Shown piece by piece: positions 1 through 62,151 of a DNA stretch of 64,000 nt. The DNA comes from an uncultured virus (IMG/VR IMGVR_UViG_3300027851_000026). Lineage: Duplodnaviria > Heunggongvirae > Uroviricota > Caudoviricetes. The notes under the pieces are model-generated. The model saw only the letters and a program-made list of their open reading frames with translations, was not told the DNA's origin and made no database searches. Within the stretch, counting starts at the first letter, position 1; each line of letters begins with the position of its first letter. Position numbers and translations under genes: made by a program. The stretch lies in the IMG/VR virus record IMGVR_UViG_3300027851_000026; one strand, 5' to 3'.

Positions 1-244
1 GGATACGTATGGCGCCAAGAATGGTGTTGATATGACGCGGACCGTGACCCCCAGCGGAGTGGGCGCCTCGTTGCCGGCCAACGGTCCGTTCGTGGGCGCG
101 TTCAATAACATCGGCACGCCTGCTGTCTTTAAAGCCAGCTCGTATGGATATGCGTCTGTTGGCGCGGCGCTTTCTGGCGCGCAACGCCTCGCGCGCTACA
201 CCAATGTTCAAGCGTGGGCCACCTCCGTGGGAGCGAATGTCTAA
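1..244 (+). repeat. Near-identical copy of 46616..46859 (3' end of the shared 278-aa gene)
   Basis: Manual alignment: mismatches only at 128, 159, 214, 226, 238 and 243. Confidence 0.97.
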
Positions 245-267
245 TATCTACGAAGGAGGAAGATGAA

Positions 268-46022: not shown

Positions 46023-46859
46023 ATGACACGCAAGCGTAATGGCATCTTCTTCTTCGGTCCATCCGGAGGTACAGGTGGTCGAGCGTTCGATGCAGATACA
46101 CTTGCGTGGGAAGCAGCAGTCATTAGTAATGGTGGCAGTGTATCACTTGCTCGACGTATCATCGTAGATCAATTCATCTACGATGAGAAAGCGAGTGGTA
46201 CATGGCCGCTCACCGACGACTATTGGGGCTTCTGGGCGGAGAACGCGATCCAGGCGCTTACGAGCCTGAAGCAGCGCCGCCTTGCGACGGCGGTCAACTC
46301 GCCAACCTTTACCGCAGACCGTGACTACACGACCGATGGCACAGCCGGTTATATCAACCTGAACTTCGTGCCATTGACCGATGCGGTGGCGATGACGACA
46401 AACTCTGTCCATGCAGAGGTCTACGAGCGGACCAACGTGAGCGGGGTTGCGGTCGCCTTCGGGGGCACTTCCGGATCAAATCGCTCGATTGCCGTGCAAA
46501 CCCGCAACGGCGGCAACGTCTTGGCGGACGGCAATAGCGCTGCCAGCACGTACACGCTGCCGGCCGCCGACAGCCGGGGGCTGACGCAGTTTGGGCGAAG
46601 TGGGACCCTGACGACGGATACGTATGGCGCCAAGAATGGTGTTGATATGACGCGGACCGTGACCCCCAGCGGAGTGGGCGCCTCGTTGCCGGCCAACGGT
46701 CCGTTCGTGGGCGCGTTCAATAACATCGGCACGCCTGCTGTCCTTAAAGCCAGCTCGTATGGATATGCGTCTGCTGGCGCGGCGCTTTCTGGCGCGCAAC
46801 GCCTCGCGCGCTACACCAATGTTCAAGCCTGGGCCACCTCTGTGGGAGCGAACGTCTGA
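46023..46859 (+). CDS. Putative virion/adsorption protein (ConA/LamG-like), mosaic gene
   Basis: A.VNSPTFTA..GY-like and DG...YI motifs; codon style changes near 46200. Confidence 0.65.
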   Translation: MTRKRNGIFFFGPSGGTGGRAFDADTLAWEAAVISNGGSVSLARRIIVDQFIYDEKASGTWPLTDDYWGFWAENAIQALTSLKQRRLATAVNSPTFTADRDYTTDGTAGYINLNFVPLTDAVAMTTNSVHAEVYERTNVSGVAVAFGGTSGSNRSIAVQTRNGGNVLADGNSAASTYTLPAADSRGLTQFGRSGTLTTDTYGAKNGVDMTRTVTPSGVGASLPANGPFVGAFNNIGTPAVLKASSYGYASAGAALSGAQRLARYTNVQAWATSVGANV

Positions 46860-47092
46860 TGGCCATGTTCATCCTTCTCACAGCCGAACAGGCCGATCAG
46901 GTACGCGGCCCCTCTGAAAGCGCTCCTTACGCCGCACTCAACCCGATCGAGCGGGCGGGTGGCGTCTTCATCCTCGGTGTCGAGGTTCTGCAGGCCCCGT
47001 ACCATGAGGTTCATGCCGCCTTCCTCGGCGGACTTCCACAGATGGACGAGAACGACCCGGATTTTCCAGGGGAGATCCAACCTCCCGAGTAG
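46859..47092 (+). CDS. Small partner protein (phage 2 allele)
   Basis: Homologous to 268..501. Confidence 0.75.
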   Translation: MAMFILLTAEQADQVRGPSESAPYAALNPIERAGGVFILGVEVLQAPYHEVHAAFLGGLPQMDENDPDFPGEIQPPE

Positions 47093-49171: not shown

Positions 49172-49250
49172 TTCCAGAGGCGGGATTTGAACCCGCATAC
49201 ATAGGCGCTAGGAGCCATCCGCCCTTGCTAAACCGGTCAGCTACTCCAGA
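49172..49250 (-). ncRNA. tRNA-like element with non-canonical anticodon arm
   Basis: Acceptor TCTGGAG/CTCTGGA, TA-GCTG/TAGC D arm with GG, T arm GCGGG-TTCAAAT-CCCGC; 12-nt anticodon loop; no CCA. Confidence 0.7.
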
Positions 49251-49576: not shown

Positions 49577-49720
49577 CTCTCGCTCCTGAAGGTGCTGCGG
49601 GCCGGGAGATGCTGCGGGAGGGCCGGTCTTAAACGCAGGTTGGCGTCGATTCGCCTTCCAACCAGTCCTTGCGCCGCAGCCTCTCCATTATCCTACTTCT
49701 TTGAGGGAAGGGGAAGGGTG

Positions 49721-49975
49721 TCACGGCTTCGCCGTGCCCTGTTCCCCTCCTGCATCAGGGACCAGCGTGCTATCAATAACCCTCTCAATAGAGTCCATAT
49801 CTTGGGCGAGGTCGAACTTGGACAGGTCGGACCACGGGCCTTTGTCCTCGACGGCGGCGAGCTTCTGGATGGCAAGCAGCGTCCGCTGTAGCCTTTCGAT
49901 CTCATCGGCGGCTAGTCCGCACAGATGCTTGGCTGTGTCGTTGTTGCGAAGTCGCCAAAGCAGATGCTCGCTCAT
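49721..49975 (-). CDS. Hypothetical phage protein (AADEIERL module)
   Basis: AAGGAG RBS. Confidence 0.65.
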   Translation of the reverse strand: MSEHLLWRLRNNDTAKHLCGLAADEIERLQRTLLAIQKLAAVEDKGPWSDLSKFDLAQDMDSIERVIDSTLVPDAGGEQGTAKP

Positions 49976-50010
49976 GCGTCACACTCCTTTCGTTCAGTAG
50001 GCCGGTTGGG

Positions 50011-50241
50011 TCAGTTGATGCGAAGATTCCGCCACCAGACGGTCAGCTTTGCGAGCCAACCGAACGCCGCCGGGATCGTCGTCACGTCGCTGCCGACGAC
50101 GCGCCCGAAAGCGCCGATGCGCTTCACGCGTTCTTGCGCCTCCTCCCAACTCCGCGCCGGGATCGTGAGCGAAAACACTTCGTTGCCGAAACTGTATTCG
50201 ACGAGATAGTTCGAAAAGCCGTCGTCTAGATCGTCAGCCAT
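50011..50241 (-). CDS. Hypothetical protein
   Basis: AGGAG RBS. Confidence 0.65.
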   Translation of the reverse strand: MADDLDDGFSNYLVEYSFGNEVFSLTIPARSWEEAQERVKRIGAFGRVVGSDVTTIPAAFGWLAKLTVWWRNLRIN

Positions 50242-50312
50242 GGGGAACGCTCCTGTTGTTAAAGACGGCCGGTCGGCGCGGTAGGGCCGAAGGCCCGCGT
50301 AGCCTGTTCATC

Positions 50313-52476: not shown

Positions 52477-52858
52477 CGTCATTCTCCTTCACCACGGCTT
52501 TCCCGTAAGGGGAGGCGGGAAGAAGTGGCCGCCAATGTGTTGGCGCGCTTGATAGAGGCTCTATCGCCGGCTGCGGCCACCAAGTCCACGTAACGTCAAG
52601 GAAGGCCACGACCTGCCCAAGACGTTCGGACCACACCAGAGCCGGGAAATGATCGCGCGGCTTTGTCTCGATAGGCTGCCATCCCTGCACCACCGCCATC
52701 CCTTCTGCCTGGAGGGCGGAGAAAAGGCGTTCGGCTTCCTCGCTGTAGATGCCCCAATGGCGGCAGGGATTGCAGGCAGTAACGCGATGCCCGCGGCACT
52801 CCTCGGCGCAATATCCCCTCGCCATCACCTCTAGGGTCTTGGAGCGGGATTCAGTCAT
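52469..52858 (-). CDS. DUF551-containing protein
   Basis: WQPIET...PTHWRPL. Confidence 0.7.
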   Translation of the reverse strand: MTESRSKTLEVMARGYCAEECRGHRVTACNPCRHWGIYSEEAERLFSALQAEGMAVVQGWQPIETKPRDHFPALVWSERLGQVVAFLDVTWTWWPQPAIEPLSSAPTHWRPLLPASPYGKAVVKENDDE

Positions 52859-53519
52859 GGTGTGCTCCGTCCGATGACGGCCGGAGCCCCTGTTCCCCTC
52901 CGGCCTCGACACCTTCCGCCTTGTCTGCGGCATCCCAGTACGCAAGCGGATTGAGCCAGTCCGGGAAGCGTGCGTTCAGTTCAGCGACGGCGGCTTTTTC
53001 TGCAGCGTTTCCGGAGTTGTAGCTTTCCGGGTCTTCGATGGGGAAAGCGGCGATGGCGACGCCTTGATCGAAGATGCAAGCCCGCGTCGGGCGACTCTTT
53101 GGGTCGCAGTCGTAGTCAATGCCAGCGTGATAGCGATGGTTGAGGCGCGCGTGCGCTTTGCGGTCATAGAACGCAGCCTTGTAGAAAACGGAAACGCGCT
53201 TTCTTCCGTGTTCGTCCAGAATGTCGGACCACATGCTGTGTCCGGTCGCCTCGCGGCGCCAGCCCGGCGGAAGCGTGGCCTGCTGAAACAGGTCGTCGAT
53301 CTTGGCGCCGAAGGTGAAGCCGGCTTGCTCGAACAGGGGCTTCCCGTTCTCGCCGTACTTCATCCCGCTCAATTCAAGCGGCATGTCGGTGGATTCCACC
53401 AATTGCTTTTGACCGGCGGCTTCGGACGCCTCAATTGCGCCTGGTGCACCTGCCGATGCTCCGATGCCGAGCGCTTCGGCAGCCAACATCGCGGGCGTCA
53501 TAATCGGCTTCTTCGTCAT
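52851..53519 (-). CDS. Hypothetical phage protein
   Basis: LP.GW...T.HSMWS...FYKAAFYDR motif. Confidence 0.75.
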   Translation of the reverse strand: MTKKPIMTPAMLAAEALGIGASAGAPGAIEASEAAGQKQLVESTDMPLELSGMKYGENGKPLFEQAGFTFGAKIDDLFQQATLPPGWRREATGHSMWSDILDEHGRKRVSVFYKAAFYDRKAHARLNHRYHAGIDYDCDPKSRPTRACIFDQGVAIAAFPIEDPESYNSGNAAEKAAVAELNARFPDWLNPLAYWDAADKAEGVEAGGEQGLRPSSDGAHHD

Positions 53520-53602
53520 CTGTCACACTCCATCAATTGCAGTAGGTCGGTTGGCGCGGTAGCTCGCCTCTTTGGCGAGCGCGTAGCCTGTTCATAATTC
53601 CA

Positions 53603-53947
53603 CTACCCAACAGGGGGAGAGAGGGCGCGGAACTTGGCGAGCCACGCTTTCGTCCGGCTGAGCGCGCGCTTGACGCGAAACTTGGCGGGAACGTCGCCGG
53701 CCTCAAGGTCAACCTCGATCAGCTCCAGCGCGTCCAGCGCCTCCCGCCTCACTTCCTCCACCCGTGGGGAGGAGAGAGCCCGCAGCAACGCCGGCACGTG
53801 GAAGTCGAGCAACGTTGAGACGGCGCCGCGATTCACGCCCGGCTGATCAAAAATCACGAGCCCAGCTTCGTCTCTTTCGATGCTGTCGAGCAGGAAGTTG
53901 ATGGCTTCAATGTCGATTCCGCTCACTGTTCGATTCTCCTTGTCCAT
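53603..53947 (-). CDS. Hypothetical protein
   Basis: ORF in operon; start uncertain. Confidence 0.55.
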   Translation of the reverse strand: MDKENRTVSGIDIEAINFLLDSIERDEAGLVIFDQPGVNRGAVSTLLDFHVPALLRALSSPRVEEVRREALDALELIEVDLEAGDVPAKFRVKRALSRTKAWLAKFRALSPPVG

Positions 53948-54770: not shown

Positions 54771-54930
54771 CCCGCGTTTGCCGGCCGACTTCCATAAGCC
54801 GCTCGCGCTCCCCCTCGCTCAGAGCCGTAATCAGGGGTTTGTGCTGTCGCCACCATGCGTTCAATTCCTCATCAGAGGTTGCCTGCCCGAGCGCCCAGAC
54901 AAGGACGCTCGGAAGGAGGTCAGCCGGCAA
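54661..54930 (-). CDS. Hypothetical protein (3' end runs out of frame into ninB)
   Basis: Coupled to bet stop. Confidence 0.45.
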   Translation of the reverse strand: MPADLLPSVLVWALGQATSDEELNAWWRQHKPLITALSEGERERLMEVGRQTRARIAAGPSSRTGSSMPPSATSPTNSRGPRKRTSYMT

Positions 54931-55855
54931 GCGCGGCCTTGCGGGCCTCGTGTTCTGCCTTCACGTTGAGCGCGTCGGACTTGTGCAGCGCCCAGAAGTG
55001 GCGAAGGGAGACTTCGTTGGTAGCCCACCACCAATCCAGTTCGCCGACGCTTTCGAGGGTGGCGAAGTGGGCGATGCACCGATCGGCCAGCTTGCCCACC
55101 GGCACGGCCTCGATGGCCTCGCCAAGCTTCCACACCATGGCGACGGTGTTGGTGCCGCCGACGCGCTGCAGGCGCTGGGCTTGCTCGTGCTGCTCGACCT
55201 CGGCAGAAGGCGTGATGTCCACCATCTGGCGTTCCATTTCCTCGGGGGCGTAGATACCCGACAGGTCTTCAGGCCAGCCGCGCCGCAGGGCTTGCGCCTC
55301 TGCGACTTTGGCAATCATTACCCGCGCCATCTTTTTCCAGTTGCTGGTGGCGTCAAGAGTGAAGCGGCCCGTAGGAGCGCGCTTTCCGGCTTGCTCGCTG
55401 TAGGCCCATTCCTCCTTCAGGGGCGCGAACTCGTCCCAATGGGCGGTGCCCACGACGGCATGCCATTCGCCATTGGGGGCGAGCTTGTAGGCGCGCACGA
55501 CGGCCTTCACGATGCCGAGCGGATTGGTCTCCAAATCCTTGGCCGCCTCGTCATAGACGATGACAGGCTCCTGGTCGTCTGGACGGTAATCGCGATTACG
55601 CGCAGCAACGGCGCGGAAGCCGTCGATCCCGGTGATAATCGCCATCTTCCGCTTTTCGTGGTCTTTCTTGTTGTAGACCACCGCATAAATCTGCTTGCGG
55701 AACGGGTCCAAACCGACGCGGCGCGCGACCTCCATGTAGAGATCGAACTCCAGATCGTTGCAGTCGGCCGCGACCGTGCGTTTGATCAAGCCAAGCTGGG
55801 AGCCGGTGTAGTCTCGCAGAGAACGCTGGGGCTGTAGGGCGACGACGTTGCTCAT
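54920..55855 (-). CDS. bet: Bet/RecT-family single-strand annealing protein
   Basis: LDPFRKQIY, GIDGFR..A, W...M..KVAEAQALR..WP...G.Y..EEM. Confidence 0.92.
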   Translation of the reverse strand: MSNVVALQPQRSLRDYTGSQLGLIKRTVAADCNDLEFDLYMEVARRVGLDPFRKQIYAVVYNKKDHEKRKMAIITGIDGFRAVAARNRDYRPDDQEPVIVYDEAAKDLETNPLGIVKAVVRAYKLAPNGEWHAVVGTAHWDEFAPLKEEWAYSEQAGKRAPTGRFTLDATSNWKKMARVMIAKVAEAQALRRGWPEDLSGIYAPEEMERQMVDITPSAEVEQHEQAQRLQRVGGTNTVAMVWKLGEAIEAVPVGKLADRCIAHFATLESVGELDWWWATNEVSLRHFWALHKSDALNVKAEHEARKAALAG

Positions 55856-55862
55856 GGGAACC

Positions 55863-56390
55863 TCACTTGATGCGAACGGAAAGGGTCAGGCCGCCGTTTG
55901 AAAGGCTCGCGCCCGGCACGGCCTCGCCAGCCCTCAGGGCCTCGGCCACGGCGGCGCGGTCGAGCTTGGGGTCGCTGGGCTTCCAGAATTTGGCAGGGAT
56001 AATGGCCTCGTCCGTAATCATGGCCTTCGGTGGTGTCGGCCGCGCCGTCATCGTGCCGAGAGGCGAGCGGATGGTCTGCAGCCCCGCCTTGTCCATCGCC
56101 ATGAGGATGATCCCCCGGCGAGACTCGATGGACTTCTCCATGCGGCCCTTGCGCGTCTGCAGTTCCTTGATCTTGGCGTCCAGCCCCTCAATCAGGATCT
56201 CGTCCTCGTGCGTCTGCTCCAGCACGAACGCGCACGCCTCAGCCAGGTTCGTTTCCCCCTCGATGGTGTCGAGAAGGAGCTTCGGATCGCAGTCCTCGCC
56301 CAACTGCTGGCGGAGCTTCATCGCGTCGTTCAGTTCGGCGCCGATTGCGCGGACGGTGACGGACGAGCGCGGGATATGCTGGTCGGGCAT
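55863..56390 (-). CDS. Siphovirus Gp157-family protein
   Basis: DTIEGET, coiled coil, K.D...A..L..G..VPGA.L. Confidence 0.85.
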   Translation of the reverse strand: MPDQHIPRSSVTVRAIGAELNDAMKLRQQLGEDCDPKLLLDTIEGETNLAEACAFVLEQTHEDEILIEGLDAKIKELQTRKGRMEKSIESRRGIILMAMDKAGLQTIRSPLGTMTARPTPPKAMITDEAIIPAKFWKPSDPKLDRAAVAEALRAGEAVPGASLSNGGLTLSVRIK

Positions 56391-56475
56391 CTGTCTGTTC
56401 TCCTGTTGTGTCAGGGGGAGGGTGGAATCTGGCTCGCAACTTCGCCGCTCCGCACCCGCTGCGTGTGAGAGTGCG

Positions 56476-56895
56476 TCAATCGGCGACGACGATTTCCACG
56501 AGTTGGCCGTCGGTGAACTTCGCGCGGTATCTGTGGTCTTTGTAGATCGGCCGACCGCGCGGGCCGTACTTCTCGTCTGGATCGCGCCCAATTTCCTCCA
56601 GCCCACCGAAATGAACCCAGCCGTGAAAAGCGGAATCGTGCAGGCTCTTCACATAGCTGATGCTACCGCAGATCGATTCGAGCGTTCCTGCTTCGGCATT
56701 CGGGAAAGGGCGCTTTTCTTTTGGCACCTCTTCAACTCGGTCAACGCGCTCCAGCATCAGGCGCCCGTCTGCCGTGATTACGTGAGTGACCATTTCGCAA
56801 TCGAAATCCTTCGTTTGCAGGCCGACTACATCGCCTTCCAAGCCCCATCCGTCTGGCAGAGGCTTCTCGCACCGGATGTAATCAAACATTCCCAT
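56476..56895 (-). CDS. Cassette gene X2, 139 aa
   Basis: MGMFD.I....PLP...QTKDF...A.FTDG motif. Confidence 0.8.
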   Translation of the reverse strand: MGMFDYIRCEKPLPDGWGLEGDVVGLQTKDFDCEMVTHVITADGRLMLERVDRVEEVPKEKRPFPNAEAGTLESICGSISYVKSLHDSAFHGWVHFGGLEEIGRDPDEKYGPRGRPIYKDHRYRAKFTDGQLVEIVVAD

Positions 56896-57223
56896 TGGTC
56901 GTGCCTTTCGTGTCAGTGGAGATGGGTGCGGTAGGGCCGTCATCGGCCCGCGTAGCCTGTTCATCCTCCCCCTCTAAGGAGAGGGCGGCTTCTGCACACT
57001 CGCGCGCCTTGATCCGGAAAGTCCGATGGCTCATGTCCTGGTTCTCCGAATGATATCTGATGCTCTCCAGCGCCTCTCTCATCCCCCGTACTGCTGCGGA
57101 GGTGGAGAGAAGGGCGCGGGCAAGGACCAGAGCCTCAAGTGCTGTCGGCGGCTTGGTTTCAAATTCCTCGACCACGCGCCAAGCAATCATACCTTCCACC
57201 TCCGTCATAGGGCGGGCGGTCAT
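56882..57223 (-). CDS. Modular protein Z, allele 2
   Basis: Shares N-terminus with 57913..58245. Confidence 0.7.
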   Translation of the reverse strand: MTARPMTEVEGMIAWRVVEEFETKPPTALEALVLARALLSTSAAVRGMREALESIRYHSENQDMSHRTFRIKARECAEAALSLEGEDEQATRADDGPTAPISTDTKGTTNGNV

Positions 57224-57486
57224 GGGGACACCGAGGCTTCAATCGGAAAGCGTCCGCCGCTGTTGCGGCGTTCCTGCCATCCCGAATAGGTCATGCGCTT
57301 GCGCTTCACGAGGGCTTCAATGGTTGTCGTGCCGCACCACCATTCCGGCGAAGACCCGTTCATCTTCACGCCGACGTGCGTCCAGTATCCTCCGGGAAGG
57401 CGCACTAACTTTGCGTCCGCGCTCTCCATGGCGTGATTGAGAACGCGCTGCATCTCCGGCGACAGTTTGTGTTCCACCTTCATCAT
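57220..57486 (-). CDS. Hypothetical protein Y (copy 2)
   Basis: AGGGAGAGGG RBS; identical to 58242..58508. Confidence 0.7.
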   Translation of the reverse strand: MMKVEHKLSPEMQRVLNHAMESADAKLVRLPGGYWTHVGVKMNGSSPEWWCGTTTIEALVKRKRMTYSGWQERRNSGGRFPIEASVSP

Positions 57487-57643
57487 CCCTCTCCCTTCGT
57501 CTGAGTGGCGGGGGAAGGCACAGGCTCCGCTTCGCTGCGCACCTGTTCCCCGGCGTCGGCGCGACCTTCCGCCTTCGCTTCCCACGTCGGGCACGGCGTG
57601 ATCTGGCTCGCTTCGCTCCGCACCCGCTGCGTGTGAGAGTGCG

Positions 57644-57916
57644 TCATTCCCGACTTTTCATGACGTATGCTTTGGCTTCTTCCTTCGACACGTATTTGCC
57701 ATCCCACTCGAGATAGACCTTCTCGAAGTTGCCTTCGTCGATCAGCTCGCAGATGATCTCTTTCTGGCGCGGCGTGTCGTCCTGCGTCATGGCACCCGCC
57801 GACGCGCCTGCTTCAAAATACTCCTTCAAGAGCGCGCGGCCTTTCTCGGAGTGGAAGTGCCAAGCCTTCATGGTCCCCCACTTCAAGGCCAACTCGTCTC
57901 TGCCGTCGTCGCTCAT
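57644..57916 (-). CDS. Cassette gene X1, 90 aa
   Basis: LKWGT.K.W...Q.DT..QK..IC.LID motif. Confidence 0.8.
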   Translation of the reverse strand: MSDDGRDELALKWGTMKAWHFHSEKGRALLKEYFEAGASAGAMTQDDTPRQKEIICELIDEGNFEKVYLEWDGKYVSKEEAKAYVMKSRE

Positions 57917-58245
57917 TTGGTCGTGCCTTTCGTGTCAGTGGAGATGGGTGCGGAGCCCGAAGGGCGAGCCTGTTCATCCTCCCCCTCTATTAAGGAGAGG
58001 GCGCGGAGACGCTTCCGAATGTCCCGCATCAGCTCAAAGTCCTTGTTCGCGGCGGCGAGAAAAGCGTTCTCGACTTCATCGATAGCGCTCTGCGGAGTTA
58101 TCATCCCCCGTACTGCTGCGGAGGTGGAGAGAAGGGCGCGGGCAAGGACCAGAGCCTCAAGTGCTGTCGGCGGCTTGGTTTCAAATTCCTCGACCACGCG
58201 CCAAGCAATCATACCTTCCACCTCCGTCATAGGGCGGGCGGTCAT
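57913..58245 (-). CDS. Modular protein Z, allele 1
   Basis: ATGA-coupled; same N-terminus as allele 2, different middle. Confidence 0.7.
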   Translation of the reverse strand: MTARPMTEVEGMIAWRVVEEFETKPPTALEALVLARALLSTSAAVRGMITPQSAIDEVENAFLAAANKDFELMRDIRKRLRALSLIEGEDEQARPSGSAPISTDTKGTTK

Positions 58246-58508
58246 GGGGACACCGAGGCTTCAATCGGAAAGCGTCCGCCGCTGTTGCGGCGTTCCTGCC
58301 ATCCCGAATAGGTCATGCGCTTGCGCTTCACGAGGGCTTCAATGGTTGTCGTGCCGCACCACCATTCCGGCGAAGACCCGTTCATCTTCACGCCGACGTG
58401 CGTCCAGTATCCTCCGGGAAGGCGCACTAACTTTGCGTCCGCGCTCTCCATGGCGTGATTGAGAACGCGCTGCATCTCCGGCGACAGTTTGTGTTCCACC
58501 TTCATCAT
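58242..58508 (-). CDS. Hypothetical protein Y (copy 1)
   Basis: Identical to 57220..57486. Confidence 0.7.
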   Translation of the reverse strand: MMKVEHKLSPEMQRVLNHAMESADAKLVRLPGGYWTHVGVKMNGSSPEWWCGTTTIEALVKRKRMTYSGWQERRNSGGRFPIEASVSP

Positions 58509-58807
58509 CCCTCTCCCTTCGTCTGAGTGGCGGGGGAAGGCACAGGCTCCGCTTCGCTGCGCACCTGTTCCCCGGCGTCGGCGCGACCTTCCGCCTTCGC
58601 TTCCCACGTCGGGCACGGCGTGATCTGGCAGAGGTCACGAACGTGCATGTCGGCCGTCCGCCAGTTCACCATTGCGGGATCGCCCGGCCTCCACTTCGGC
58701 GTCTTGTCGAGCGTGACTGGGTGGCCGCAATCCACAAACTCGGTGATCTGCGGAGAGCCGCCGTAGGTGTTGTGTTTGCACGTGCGGCAGTCTTGCTCGT
58801 CTGTCAT
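58505..58807 (-). CDS. Cys-rich hypothetical protein
   Basis: CRTCKH...C...CP.WE. Confidence 0.65.
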   Translation of the reverse strand: MTDEQDCRTCKHNTYGGSPQITEFVDCGHPVTLDKTPKWRPGDPAMVNWRTADMHVRDLCQITPCPTWEAKAEGRADAGEQVRSEAEPVPSPATQTKGEG

Positions 58808-59166
58808 CTCACGCTCTCCCAGAACGCATGCAGTTCAGACAGATCCAGAGGCTCGACGGGGTTGCAGCCGTTCGCCTCCAGATCCTTGTCGATGGCGCCC
58901 ATGACGTTGCCGAGCTGGTCGATTGCGCCGCCGGCTACTTCGTGCAGCCAGCCGTTCATTTCCTGCCTGCGGTTCGTGGGGAGAGCCTGGAACCGCCGCA
59001 GGACGCGCAGCAGATCGTCGGCAGCAGCGAACGCCTCTTGGCAATCGTCGTGAGCCGAGGCGAGGGCGAGGCCCTGAGAGCGGCGCGTCGCGCTCACAAG
59101 GTCCAGCCTGCTCACACGTCCCGGCGCGCTCTCGCGGATCAGGGCGGGGATATAGGTGGTGTCCAT
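58804..59166 (-). CDS. Hypothetical protein
   Basis: AAGGAG RBS. Confidence 0.65.
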   Translation of the reverse strand: MDTTYIPALIRESAPGRVSRLDLVSATRRSQGLALASAHDDCQEAFAAADDLLRVLRRFQALPTNRRQEMNGWLHEVAGGAIDQLGNVMGAIDKDLEANGCNPVEPLDLSELHAFWESVR

Positions 59167-59167
59167 G

Positions 59168-59737
59168 TCAGGACTCCTTCGCCTTGATGGATGCGACAGC
59201 CAGTTGCGCCTTATGCCGCTCAATCTCGCGCTCGCAGCGCTTGATTTCCTTGCGGTGATACGAGGCGTTCCAAGCCCATGTCCGCGTGTCGCGTTCCTTG
59301 CGATAAACGCGGGCCATTTCTTCCTGTTTGGCAGCCTCGGCAAGCTCCACGCCCTTGGCCTCGGCCTCCTCGCGAGAGGCAAATACGTCTTTTGACAGGA
59401 ACGTATACCCGCCGACCAAATCAGTGACGCGGTACTCGACACCCTCAGCATTCATCTCGATCCCGGTCACACGAGCAAGCGCCGCTCTAGCTGCTCGCTT
59501 ATGGACGATGATCCGGCCAGTGGGGGGCTCCCAGCCGCGCGAGCAATTTGCGCAGTGGATCGATACCTGCGTCTCGTCATGGAATGTGACGCGCAGCCGG
59601 CCAGTGCCGCCGCAGTCGGGGCACTCGACGCTCGACTCAGTTGTATCGAAGCGAGCCATCCAAACCGTGTCGCCAATGTTGAATGCAGGGCGAGATTGGT
59701 GCGAGGCCATCGAGCCGAGCCCGTTCATGTCTTCCAT
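59168..59737 (-). CDS. Zn-finger (CPDCGGTG) phage protein
   Basis: FNIGD.VW, CxxCxGxG, VFASREEA. Confidence 0.75.
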   Translation of the reverse strand: MEDMNGLGSMASHQSRPAFNIGDTVWMARFDTTESSVECPDCGGTGRLRVTFHDETQVSIHCANCSRGWEPPTGRIIVHKRAARAALARVTGIEMNAEGVEYRVTDLVGGYTFLSKDVFASREEAEAKGVELAEAAKQEEMARVYRKERDTRTWAWNASYHRKEIKRCEREIERHKAQLAVASIKAKES

Positions 59738-59783
59738 ATCTCACACTCCTGCTTTGGAGAGGGCGCGTCGAAAGCGGCCGGGG

Positions 59784-60107
59784 TTAGTCTGTGGGCGGTT
59801 CATAGGTCGCGTTCGCCATGTTCACGATCCAGTTGGCGATATCTCGCTCAAGATCGGCAGCCACGATGATCTCAAGCTTATTGCTGAGGATATTGACGAA
59901 CGGCGGCTTTGATCCGTCACCCCACGGCTCGATATGCCAAGGCAACCCGAACCTGTCCGCATGGCGTTTGGCGAGACCCGTCTCAAACACGGCCATAGCC
60001 TTCCGCACTCCGGGGCTCCAGTGGTCGGAGCAGTGCGAGTACCCGCTGTCGCCGGGGCCAAATTCGCCGCCGCACTGACTGCAATACGTTTTCTCAAATT
60101 TACTCAT
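59784..60107 (-). CDS. Hypothetical protein (CSQCG..FGPG..G.SHC module)
   Basis: GAGG RBS. Confidence 0.65.
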   Translation of the reverse strand: MSKFEKTYCSQCGGEFGPGDSGYSHCSDHWSPGVRKAMAVFETGLAKRHADRFGLPWHIEPWGDGSKPPFVNILSNKLEIIVAADLERDIANWIVNMANATYEPPTD

Positions 60108-60172
60108 TGCACTTGTCCTCTGATGAAGTTCGAAGCGGGTGCGGAGCGATGCGAAGCAGAGCGAGCCCGCGT

Positions 60173-60463
60173 CTACACTCCTGCTTTGGAGAGGGCGGCG
60201 CGGAGAAGTTCGACGCCCCAGAGGCAGCCTTCGTCGCCGACAAGCGCTTTGCCTTCGGCGCTCTCCAGCATGGCAAGTGTGCGCTGGCACGCCTCCACCA
60301 GATCAGGAGCGGCGGAGATCAGGCGGGCGTTGGCCCCCATGCGTGCGTCGTACTTGCATTCTGGGTGGTCGCCGTAAACGGCAGCGATCATCTGGTCGTT
60401 GGCCGCGTGAACGGAGGTTCCGTTCTCAGTCCAAGGCCCCGGCGTGTACTTCGCGTCTCCCAT
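60173..60463 (-). CDS. TPGPW/ANARLI.AAPDL-family protein
   Basis: Motifs; paralog of 60490..60789. Confidence 0.75.
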   Translation of the reverse strand: MGDAKYTPGPWTENGTSVHAANDQMIAAVYGDHPECKYDARMGANARLISAAPDLVEACQRTLAMLESAEGKALVGDEGCLWGVELLRAALSKAGV

Positions 60464-60489
60464 TTCCCTCTCCTCTATCCCGGTGTGCG

Positions 60490-60789
60490 TTAGGACGAAG
60501 CCTTGGCGATGGCGGCATTGGCCTTCACCCACCACGCGGGGCGCGTATCATCGCCAAGAGGACCGTGTGCAACGACGGCTTCTGTCAAAAGGGAAAGCAG
60601 GTCAGGCGCGGCGGCGATGAGGCGGGCGTCCGCAATGCGGGCTTGGAGCGCCGGCCCTGCGTAAGCTCTAGTGGGCATGTTGACGACGGTCAGAACCTCG
60701 GGGCCGCCGTTGATATGCGGGCCGATCCAGATGTCGCCTTGGTTGTAGTCAATGCGCCAAGGCCCCGGTGTGTGCTTCGCGGCTTCCAT
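60490..60789 (-). CDS. TPGPW/ARLIAAAPDL-family protein, first gene of PL operon
   Basis: Motifs; GAGGAG RBS. Confidence 0.75.
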   Translation of the reverse strand: MEAAKHTPGPWRIDYNQGDIWIGPHINGGPEVLTVVNMPTRAYAGPALQARIADARLIAAAPDLLSLLTEAVVAHGPLGDDTRPAWWVKANAAIAKASS

Positions 60790-60993: not shown

Positions 60994-61395
60994 CTAGGCT
61001 CGGCTGCCTTTTATCCCCTCTTCGAATGCCATCGTGGCTTCGGCGTTGCCGACACGAAAACGGTAGGTGGCTCTACTCCCGCCGCCTCCGGGCAGATCGT
61101 CTCGGCGGCCGGAAATGAACAGGGTTCCGGCCCGGTTGTGAGCCCGAAGCGAAGCCGCCGAAAGGCCTAGTTGTGCAGCCAACCGGTCGGCGTCCACGCC
61201 GACCGCATTGCCTCCGTCTGTTCGCTCAAGTCTGATCGTCAACGCCGCGCCGGGCTGCGGCGCCCCGCCGCCGGACTGATACAGGAACAGGTAGTTGCGC
61301 CAAATCCATTCGCCGTCGACCTTGGCGAAGTCGGGTAGCGCCTCGCCTTGTCCCTCCGGTGGCCATTCCTCGGGGCGCCTGCTATCCGCCATCAC
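60994..61395 (-). CDS. Hypothetical protein co-transcribed with repressor
   Basis: Coupled to cI stop. Confidence 0.6.
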   Translation of the reverse strand: MMADSRRPEEWPPEGQGEALPDFAKVDGEWIWRNYLFLYQSGGGAPQPGAALTIRLERTDGGNAVGVDADRLAAQLGLSAASLRAHNRAGTLFISGRRDDLPGGGGSRATYRFRVGNAEATMAFEEGIKGSRA

Positions 61396-62072
61396 ATCCT
61401 CGCCCAGACGCCGACGACGCGGCCGTTGATGTAGGCCTCGCCAAGGTTGCGCTCGTAAGCCTGGAAAGCCGCGTTGGCGCTGCTGATCCGCACCCGTAGC
61501 GGGTCGCTGTTCGGCACGACCTCGACATATTTAAGAACGAGGGCCAGCCCGTCCCAAACGACGAAAATACCGGGCGGAGAGGGAACGGTATCCTCGATGT
61601 CGACCATGACGCGCTGACCCGGCCACAGCTTAGGCTCCATGCTGTTGCCCTTGACCGCTAGTATCTTGATCCGGTTCGAGGAAATGCCGTAGGCCTCGCG
61701 AAAGCTCGCAGTCGGCATGGTGTGGACGCCGACAATAGCAACGCCTTCATCGCTCGCCATCAGTGTCCCGTCGCCGTCGATCCCCATTCCGGCACTCGCG
61801 TGAACCTCCAGCTCGGCGATCTCGACCGTGTCGCCGGTCATTGACCGCTTCTGTGGCGGAGGCGGCGGGCGCTCGCCGGTCAGGTCGGCAAGCGTGCAAC
61901 CCAGCACTTTTGCAATTTTTGCCAGCGTATCGTGCCGAGGGTTTTTTGAGCGCCCTTCGATGATGTCGCGCGCCGCAGTGTCATTGAGGCCGGCCTTCTT
62001 CGAAAGACTCTTGGCGTTCATGCCCAACAAGGTCATGCGCCGTTCGATTTGTTTGGCAACGATGGAACTCAT
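61392..62072 (-). CDS. cI: CI-like repressor (XRE HTH plus S24 peptidase)
   Basis: N-terminal HTH, AG cleavage site, VKGNSMEP, LKY, GRVV. Confidence 0.92.
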   Translation of the reverse strand: MSSIVAKQIERRMTLLGMNAKSLSKKAGLNDTAARDIIEGRSKNPRHDTLAKIAKVLGCTLADLTGERPPPPPQKRSMTGDTVEIAELEVHASAGMGIDGDGTLMASDEGVAIVGVHTMPTASFREAYGISSNRIKILAVKGNSMEPKLWPGQRVMVDIEDTVPSPPGIFVVWDGLALVLKYVEVVPNSDPLRVRISSANAAFQAYERNLGEAYINGRVVGVWARM

Positions 62073-62107
62073 CCCCTGAAGATGCATCGGCAGCCGCAAT
62101 CGAGATA

Positions 62108-62151
62108 ATGGGAAGTTACCCATTGACCATGGGATTTTTCCAACTTATCTT
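62108..62151 (+). promoter_or_regulatory. PR promoter with two operators
   Basis: TTGACC-17-TATCTT; ATGGGAAGTTACCCAT (62108..62123) and ATGGGATTTTTCCAAC (62129..62144). Confidence 0.8.

Follow-up and report, generated by a model that had tools for sequence, protein, structure and literature searches.

INTRODUCTION

How phages initially gain whole, unrelated genes with clean ends is still debated, the options being homology, random joining followed by selection, or dedicated sites (PMC3945230). Among described systems, the likest to the locus reported here are PeSL cassettes and the linker mosaicism of lambdoid phages. Otherwise different lambdoid phages have short conserved sequences at gene boundaries in common, and Clark et al. 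reportedly described 'linker' sequences at such boundaries in 2001. PeSLs, as presented in the accessible parts of their descriptions (PMC2839356, PMC4122927), are units of ~100 bp with a sigma-70 promoter and a terminator that occur in lytic T4-like phages, where these short conserved hairpin elements precede variable genes of no known function and exchange is ascribed to recombination from one element to another.

Here we analyzed a window of 64,000 nucleotides from an uncultured Caudoviricetes virus (IMG/VR record IMGVR_UViG_3300027851_000026, a single contig of 64,158 nt) and found a real multi-allele gene slot bordered by a hairpin element, called E below. E is apparently undescribed so far, as the literature searched, mostly open-access articles without supplements, held no description of E or of the slot. 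We regard the slot as a form of linker-mediated phage mosaicism. Because it combines short, defined flanks with at least five alleles and an adjacent annealing gene, the acquisition question becomes directly testable, and the slot suits the study of how phages gain new genes. Whichever mechanism applies, any role that E has in expression or as single-stranded DNA would be new.

The slot shares with PeSLs the hairpin elements before variable genes, but it differs from the units in the accessible parts of PMC2839356 and PMC4122927 in that E measures 19-38 nt, gave no promoter and no T-tract terminator when scanned, is arranged as inverted pairs around genes and is joined by a trailer that starts on the stop codon; moreover, judging by its CI, RecT, NinB and integrase genes, the phage is temperate and of the lambdoid type, not T4-type. 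With lambdoid mosaicism it has in common the temperate background, the early operon, the adjacent annealing protein and flanks longer than the minimal pairing segment, which is 23-27 bp for Red-beta (PMC3945230). However, a recurrent structured element at fixed spacing from start and stop is not described in the accessible text of that source, nor is first capture covered there.

The first-pass annotation had likened the slot to integron cassettes. Its fillers are gene-sized, apparently promoterless (by consensus scan only), mostly of no known function and bounded by imperfect hairpins, as are the units in the accessible account of integrons (PMC2674596). Relative to that account, however, the slot has no AAC...GTT core pair, its sites are shorter than 55 nt, each gene has two inverted sites instead of one direct site, and genes are replaced instead of stacked. 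Neither the attC inverse core (RYYYAAC) nor the core (GTTRRRY) was present on either strand of the four flanks, and Pfam searches of the window part and of 88 ORFs from genomes G006 and G008 found only ordinary phage integrases and no integron integrase; a likeness beyond analogy is not supported. REP/RAYT and IS200/IS605 elements, in the accessible part of PMC6006769, resemble E in their imperfect hairpins of 20-40 nt and their inverted pairs; as for the GT(A/G)G-type guide 5' of a hairpin, GTAG or GGAG stands before the stem in most copies of E, though not all. E is not repeated in the chromosomes searched and is so far confined to phage early operons. No HUH (Y1) gene was found beside E in the window part or among ORFs of >=130 aa in G006 and G008. 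In pdif modules, genes lie between inversely oriented short sites and are swapped between replicons; E, by contrast, has a high GC content, varies in length and does not resemble a Xer site, and the exchange points fall inside the flanks.

RESULTS

The GC content of the window shifts from ~50% to ~62% near 46.2 kb, and the gene content of the right part is that of the left arm of a lambdoid-type temperate phage, with a CI gene (61392-62123), a run of small genes, and then Gp157/Gam-like, RecT, NinB, HNH, excisionase-like and integrase genes. The slot immediately precedes the recombination module, both here and in loci L031 and L140 of other viral records. In the window, a Gp157/Gam-like gene (55863..56390, minus strand) is directly downstream of it, ahead of a RecT/Bet-family single-strand annealing protein (54920..55855, minus strand), and the same place is held by a Rad52-like protein in L031 and by ERF in L140. 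The closest match of RecT among isolated phages is in a Rhizobium phage (43%) and GapR-like genes occur in related records, suggesting that the host is probably alphaproteobacterial.

The record seems to join two phages (50% and 62% GC) via a common 245-nt stretch, 98% identical, at window positions 1-245 and 46616-46860, at the end of gene 46023-46859, whose own GC content climbs midway; the join at 46.2-46.9 kb is either an assembly chimera or recent gene sharing. We also noted a tRNA-like gene near the integrase (49172-49250, minus strand; Rfam, 36.3 bits).

The slot occurs twice in the window. The 33-nt trailer A is identical in its two copies (56446..56478 and 57614..57646, minus strand) and consists of TGA, 19 nt and then the first arm of an inverted hairpin, E-R; for the second copy, identity with loci L030 and L031 extends over 44 nt. 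Leader B (56895..56931 and 57911..57953, minus strand) is identical over 37 nt (56895-56931 and 57917-57953), and its second copy includes the ATGAGC common to most fillers. Leader B is also in frame as the C-terminal tail of an upstream gene, Y, its first copy being the coding tail of Y2. The stop codon of Y1 overlaps the start of X1 (ATGA); the first copy of the leader is one A shorter before the ATG, and this overlap is therefore lost at X2. The sequence GCTCCGCACCC is on the plus strand at 56447 and 57615, with its reverse complement at 57946 and 60137. Thus, the identical 33-nt and 37-nt flanks reported previously were exact in extent, and the oppositely oriented hairpins said to bracket each slot were found as inverted hairpins around each filler.

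Gene X2 (56476..56895, minus strand; 139 aa), the left-slot filler, belongs to an uncharacterised phage family with 310 relatives, and gene X1 (57644..57916, minus strand; 90 aa), the right-slot filler, to an uncharacterised family with 745. The two are not homologs: they are unrelated by sequence (BLASTP E=24), by family profile (hhalign of two 120-sequence family alignments, probability 0.07%, E=0.69; best cross-HMM E=0.89) and by predicted secondary structure, as the AlphaFold model of X1 is mixed helix and strand (pLDDT 80) and that of X2 nearly all strand (pLDDT 82). The dissimilarity noted at first pass is thus borne out by every comparison. Neither protein matched Pfam, PADLOC or a named Atlas family; X2 had a single weak PHROG match. 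The predicted model of X1 found no PDB fold, and the fold matches of X2 were only uncharacterised phage proteins. Relatives of X1 and X2 in 28 viral loci had neither hairpin E nor the slot flanks. Separately, some X1 relatives are in low-GC phage contigs and are bordered by imperfect palindromes with TAAC...GTTA ends (L013 2840-3450, where they stand on both gene sides, and also L014, L017, L020 and L021), which look like attC sites in a phage record.

Searching for the flanks and tabulating the ORFs between them revealed leader B together with trailer A around at least five unrelated fillers, three of them fully seen, which upholds the slot system proposed at first pass: X1 and X2 showed no remote homology, and they are not the only two fillers. 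All-pair comparison without L045 found no similarity between fillers at E <0.05. In L031, an unrelated ORF of 132 aa stands between copies of B and A identical to those of the window, and after it come a different gene and the Rad52-like protein. A 33.6-kb contig from sequencing run X7 reads A, 756 other letters, then ATGAGC and B, a filler of 765 nt or 255 codons including both ends (known only as a contig joint). A loose contig end from run X6 falls exactly at 56478. Run X2 has gene X1 directly adjoining the Gp157 leader and two joints to other fillers, one with 12 nt in common with the start of X1 and the other departing from A within the stop codon, at 57644. Trailer A is likewise present behind ORFs of 98 aa in L030 and 156 aa in L140 (with ERF next), and a variant of it follows an 85-aa ORF in L114; altogether, it was found with four different leaders. 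The entry L029/L044 ends inside the trailer and was left out of the filler count. The 37-nt leader had no exact match in the viral contig collection, isolated-phage records gave chance matches only, and trailer A was absent from 401 sampled genomes.

Exchange exact from ATG to stop codon, as first claimed, was confirmed at the stop and not at the start. In each of the six trailer-A fillers seen in full, the reading frame runs precisely into the trailer TGA. The last codons differ, no codon is common to the fillers ahead of TGA, and the joins carry no donor spacer; the patterns used to retrieve the loci did not include the stop codon. The other two frames are open through trailer A, and E is translated through elsewhere. 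Each stop codon stands directly after an 18-19-nt spacer from E-R. Six such joins by random frame would be expected about 1 time in 700, by arithmetic that ignores tail selection and TGA microhomology, and TGA ends 126 of the 197 ORFs here. By reading of the sequence, the first bases after TGA can pair with the first arm of E-R, suggesting that the structured element may start right at the stop codon and leave no room for a join beyond it; an element starting there may account for half of the precision.

At the start, ATGAGC opens five of six leader-B fillers, against a background of 25 of 197 ORFs, with three of the five known only from contig joints, and it keeps the ATGA overlap with the upstream gene. 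X2 stands on its own family's start (109/120 relatives begin MG), and one joint has the 12 nt in common with X1. In L031, another, unrelated upstream ORF runs in frame into B and the first arm of E-L is gone; in L045, too, E-L is read through to an ATGA overlap. The C-termini of the filler families are uneven: X1 is without a tyrosine found in 101 of 120 relatives, and a relative of the L031 filler, 84% identical, carries a different C-terminal tail. Also at odds with strict precision are the leader doubling as the tail of Y, a second trailer type entered in varied frames, and P0267, a mid-gene chimera of an N-terminus like that of a neighbouring gene and the second half of the L031 filler.

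Element E is found in the sense orientation before start codons (E-L) and inverted after genes (E-R). Its G-rich strand reads GG(T/C)GCG, G(T)A, a variable stem-loop and then GCG(T)AGCC. Nine copies occur in 46.2-64 kb, against a mean of 0.115 and a maximum of 1 in 200 dinucleotide shuffles, a figure that favours E, as the search pattern was drawn from the same copies; the left part of the window has none. E-R lies on the plus strand after X2 (56431..56456) and after X1 (57605..57624). The minus-strand E-L copies are at 56925..56957 (29 nt before the ATG of X2), 57947..57970 (30 nt before that of X1), 60138..60167 (30 nt before an ATG at 60107) and 50275..50304 (33 nt before an ATG at 50241). 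E recurs in L030, L031, L044, L045, L067/L069, L068, L114, L117 and L122, and is also found in other alphaproteobacterial-type temperate phages.

A strict pattern run over all phage records in the set gave 22 distinct matches, of which 13 are followed at 29-34 nt by an ATG that starts an ORF of >=45 aa (background, 844 of 21,000 positions, or 4%); the remaining nine are inverted copies after genes. In a set of 21 distinct copies curated by hand, a C[GNA]G loop is present on the G-rich strand of 12, where all four bases occur at N, and on the other strand of none; the stems vary in sequence yet stay paired. Since copies of E are related, the loop and spacing counts are not independent events. 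In single-stranded DNA, loops of this kind are exceptionally stable, and GNA triloops favour DNA over RNA. The G-rich strand has the lower folding energy, which can follow from base composition and was not counted as evidence. Inverted pairs of E surround gene blocks in the window, L030, L114 and L140.

Further scans delimited the element. Chromosomes of 221 alphaproteobacterial-class genomes, a sample outside which the host may lie, gave five single matches, against 15 for the reversed control. A consensus scan of 55800-60500 found no sigma-70 promoter-like site, although alphaproteobacterial promoters may escape such a scan; no intrinsic terminator was found at the slot, where a hairpin is present but the sense strand has no T-tract; and Rfam had no match there. 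Reading E and TGCA as a sigma-54 promoter fails on the GG-N10-GC spacing of the consensus. In a genome-contig scan, none of 12 loci had the slot flanks in common beyond the pattern by BLAST, and in a GTAG-type scan only L078 and L097 (records of L046 and L045) were real among 36. A GA-type scan of 32 loci, with a perfect stem and common flanks as retention criteria, kept seven (L109, L113, L114, L115, L117, L122 and L125), three of them new, and dropped 25, including L110, which has a different repeat type. A looser pattern had 40 matches, against 18 in shuffles, and was excluded from the counts.

A second hairpin type follows GGGGAACAGG (window 49700-49747 and 52860-52898; L141, two copies; L148); it mostly has GAA or GCA loops on the sense strand and closes gene blocks opened by E-L. 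E-L is also found in a rightward early operon (L142 2261-4868, L143 3783), with no inverted partner identified, where it precedes a T5orf172-domain gene and a nuclease-like gene.

The two slots are the halves of a 1-kb tandem duplication (56895-57607 and 57917-58629), of which leader B is the edge. A block of 529 nt is identical in the two copies: that at 57079..57607 holds part of Y, gene Z (57220-57486) and an E-R with the second trailer type (57523-57543), and that at 58101..58629 has its E-R at 58545-58565. The junction (57601..57607, plus strand) is a 7-nt microhomology, ATCTGGC, at the outer foot of E-R, and the same letters were read at 56427 and 58623. Gene Y2 (56882..57223, minus strand; 113 aa) reads through E-L and leader B, and Y1 (57913-58245; 110 aa) is its counterpart. 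Contigs from runs X1 and X7 have 291 other letters in place of gene Z and the start of gene Y (window 57119-57480 and 57225-57481) between conserved ends, so that gene Y is itself a mosaic.

It is very unlikely that the side-by-side arrangement is an assembly artefact made of two alleles in a mixed phage population, and this would concern the tandem only, leaving the slot unaffected. The apparent chimerism of the record at about 46.2-46.9 kb, a run X7 contig with a single unit and the fact that, among the contigs listed, none spans the Z-to-A junction are consistent with an artefact; the depths of the run that is the likely source, ~9-13 for the Y2-specific part but 35 for the Y1-specific part, also misfit a pure tandem. 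Against it, the duplicated block has a depth of 53.7, compared with 15-25 in the Gp157/RecT flank and 21-28 in each filler, and the slot itself is present in the independent records L030, L031, L114 and L140.

Other boundaries in this operon are exchanged as well, and joins at other linkers of the region are uneven too. A second slot has its E-L at 53553..53588 (minus strand), in the leader before a 222-aa gene (52851-53519), and behind the same leader type L030, L045 and L122 have genes unrelated to it. L044 lacks this slot, and its empty site shows no clean join. ORFs run into the second trailer type in different frames. The Gp157/Gam-like gene is replaced at its ATG in two runs (loose ends at 56388) and gene Z at its start codon (loose ends at 57484), both without E-L directly before them. 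We also observed another common leader without a full E before unrelated genes (window 49973-50010, L122 1137-1174).

DISCUSSION

We lean, with confidence a little better than even, towards the linkers being homology arms for the annealing protein of the phage, while new genes come in through microhomology joins under selection; it is the option of Bet-mediated short-homology exchange plus selection raised at first pass. In the early-left operon, short conserved linkers would connect small genes, and the slot would be one pair of these linkers, leader B with E-L and trailer A with the inverted E-R. Flanks, fillers, hairpin element and the annealing genes next to the slot are observed, whereas every enzymatic step is inferred. 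First, a foreign gene would be taken in through a rare join, non-homologous or at a microhomology, close to its start and stop codons; there the resident linker would supply ATG(AGC) and TGA, and selection for translational coupling, an intact linker and compactness would retain only tight joins. The 33-44 nt of identical flank per side would then let the annealing protein, RecT here, swap whole genes between relatives; the outcome of this step is seen in the unrelated fillers within the same flanks. Finally, as the assembly shows, X1-type and X2-type units were joined at the 7-nt microhomology at the foot of E-R, leaving two alleles side by side in the window. E itself would be retained for a putative role of its own, a hairpin in single-stranded DNA or a regulatory site being the most likely candidates.

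In addition to the shared flanks, homology-arm exchange is favoured by the annealing genes that adjoin the slot, by flanks that exceed the Red-beta minimum, by joins that are not uniformly precise, by neighbouring genes exchanged at their ATG even where no E-L stands directly ahead, and by the lack of reverse transcriptase, Y1/HUH transposase and integron integrase families among the 88 ORFs of G006 and G008. However, homology arms cannot account for first capture, and arms alone leave the fixed 29-34-nt spacing and the strand-specific GNA loops unaccounted for, while the six exact stop joins with other frames open also stand against it.

These same observations would be explained by dedicated cassette machinery, which we consider unlikely but deserving of weight. 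A phage or host enzyme would recognise the G-rich strand of E as a single-stranded hairpin and cut and join at a set distance 5' of it, which falls at the start codon for E-L and at the stop codon for E-R, much as HUH transposases act on IS200/IS605 ends and REPs, and integron integrases on attC. Besides the stop joins and the two spacings (29-34 nt to ATG, 18-19 nt to the stop), the one-stranded C[GNA]G loops with all four N, the stems that differ yet stay paired, the inverted pairs around gene blocks and the duplication breakpoint at a hairpin foot all fit such an enzyme, and HUH enzymes cut away from 20-25-nt hairpins according to the accessible part of PMC6006769. On the other hand, the joins at the start end are uneven, L031 has a broken E-L, the spacing ranges over 5 nt, the 221 genomes do not have E as a chromosomal repeat, and the 88 ORFs of >=130 aa in G006 (rated complete) and G008 held no candidate enzyme family: no reverse transcriptase, Y1/HUH transposase or integron integrase. 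That E is specifically the recognition site of an undescribed single-stranded-DNA capture system of alphaproteobacterial temperate phages, which would install foreign ORFs with the stop set exactly at the trailer, is similarly doubtful, if slightly more so; if true, phages would have their own version of integron cassette formation, acting on a substrate that is defined and can be cloned.

The spacing could also mean that E is purely an expression element, acting in RNA processing, in antitermination or as a template-strand hairpin promoter of the kind known from phage N4, with swapping as ordinary mosaicism and exact gene ends following from fixed distances required on both sides. We hold this to be improbable. 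The constant ATG distance fits it, as do a recurring TG(C/A)A ~10 nt after E-L, the position of the E-L GNA hairpin on the template strand, and pairing of the E-L and E-R flanks as RNA at -36 to -56 kcal/mol, values that stand without a shuffle control. Nevertheless, E occurs in both orientations, its GNA triloops favour DNA over RNA, the slot showed no sigma-70 promoter, intrinsic terminator or Rfam match in the scans above, and trailer A combines with four different leaders and thus has no obligate partner.

Finally, it is highly improbable that E-L...E-R units are non-autonomous transposons with passenger genes and E as terminal inverted repeat, since, despite the inverted ends around gene blocks and the absence of the second slot from L044, target duplication is at most 1 nt in all seven inverted pairs, the L044 empty site is not clean, exchange points lie inside the ends and not at them, and no transposase family was found in the 88 ORFs of G006 and G008.

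A few minor observations concern the operon of the slot and other E-bearing phages. Many small genes end in CCCTCTCC just before the next ribosome-binding site (window 53600-53620, 56960-56990, 57975-58005, 59743-59765 and 60175-60197), and pairing of CCCTCTCC with that site could couple translation. Two adjacent genes (60173-60463 and 60490-60789) both belong to phrog_1273 and have start regions similar over 51 nt. Two E-bearing phages have matches to Pfam Acb3, a CBASS inhibitor (L146 10060-10881 and L142 6629-7450).
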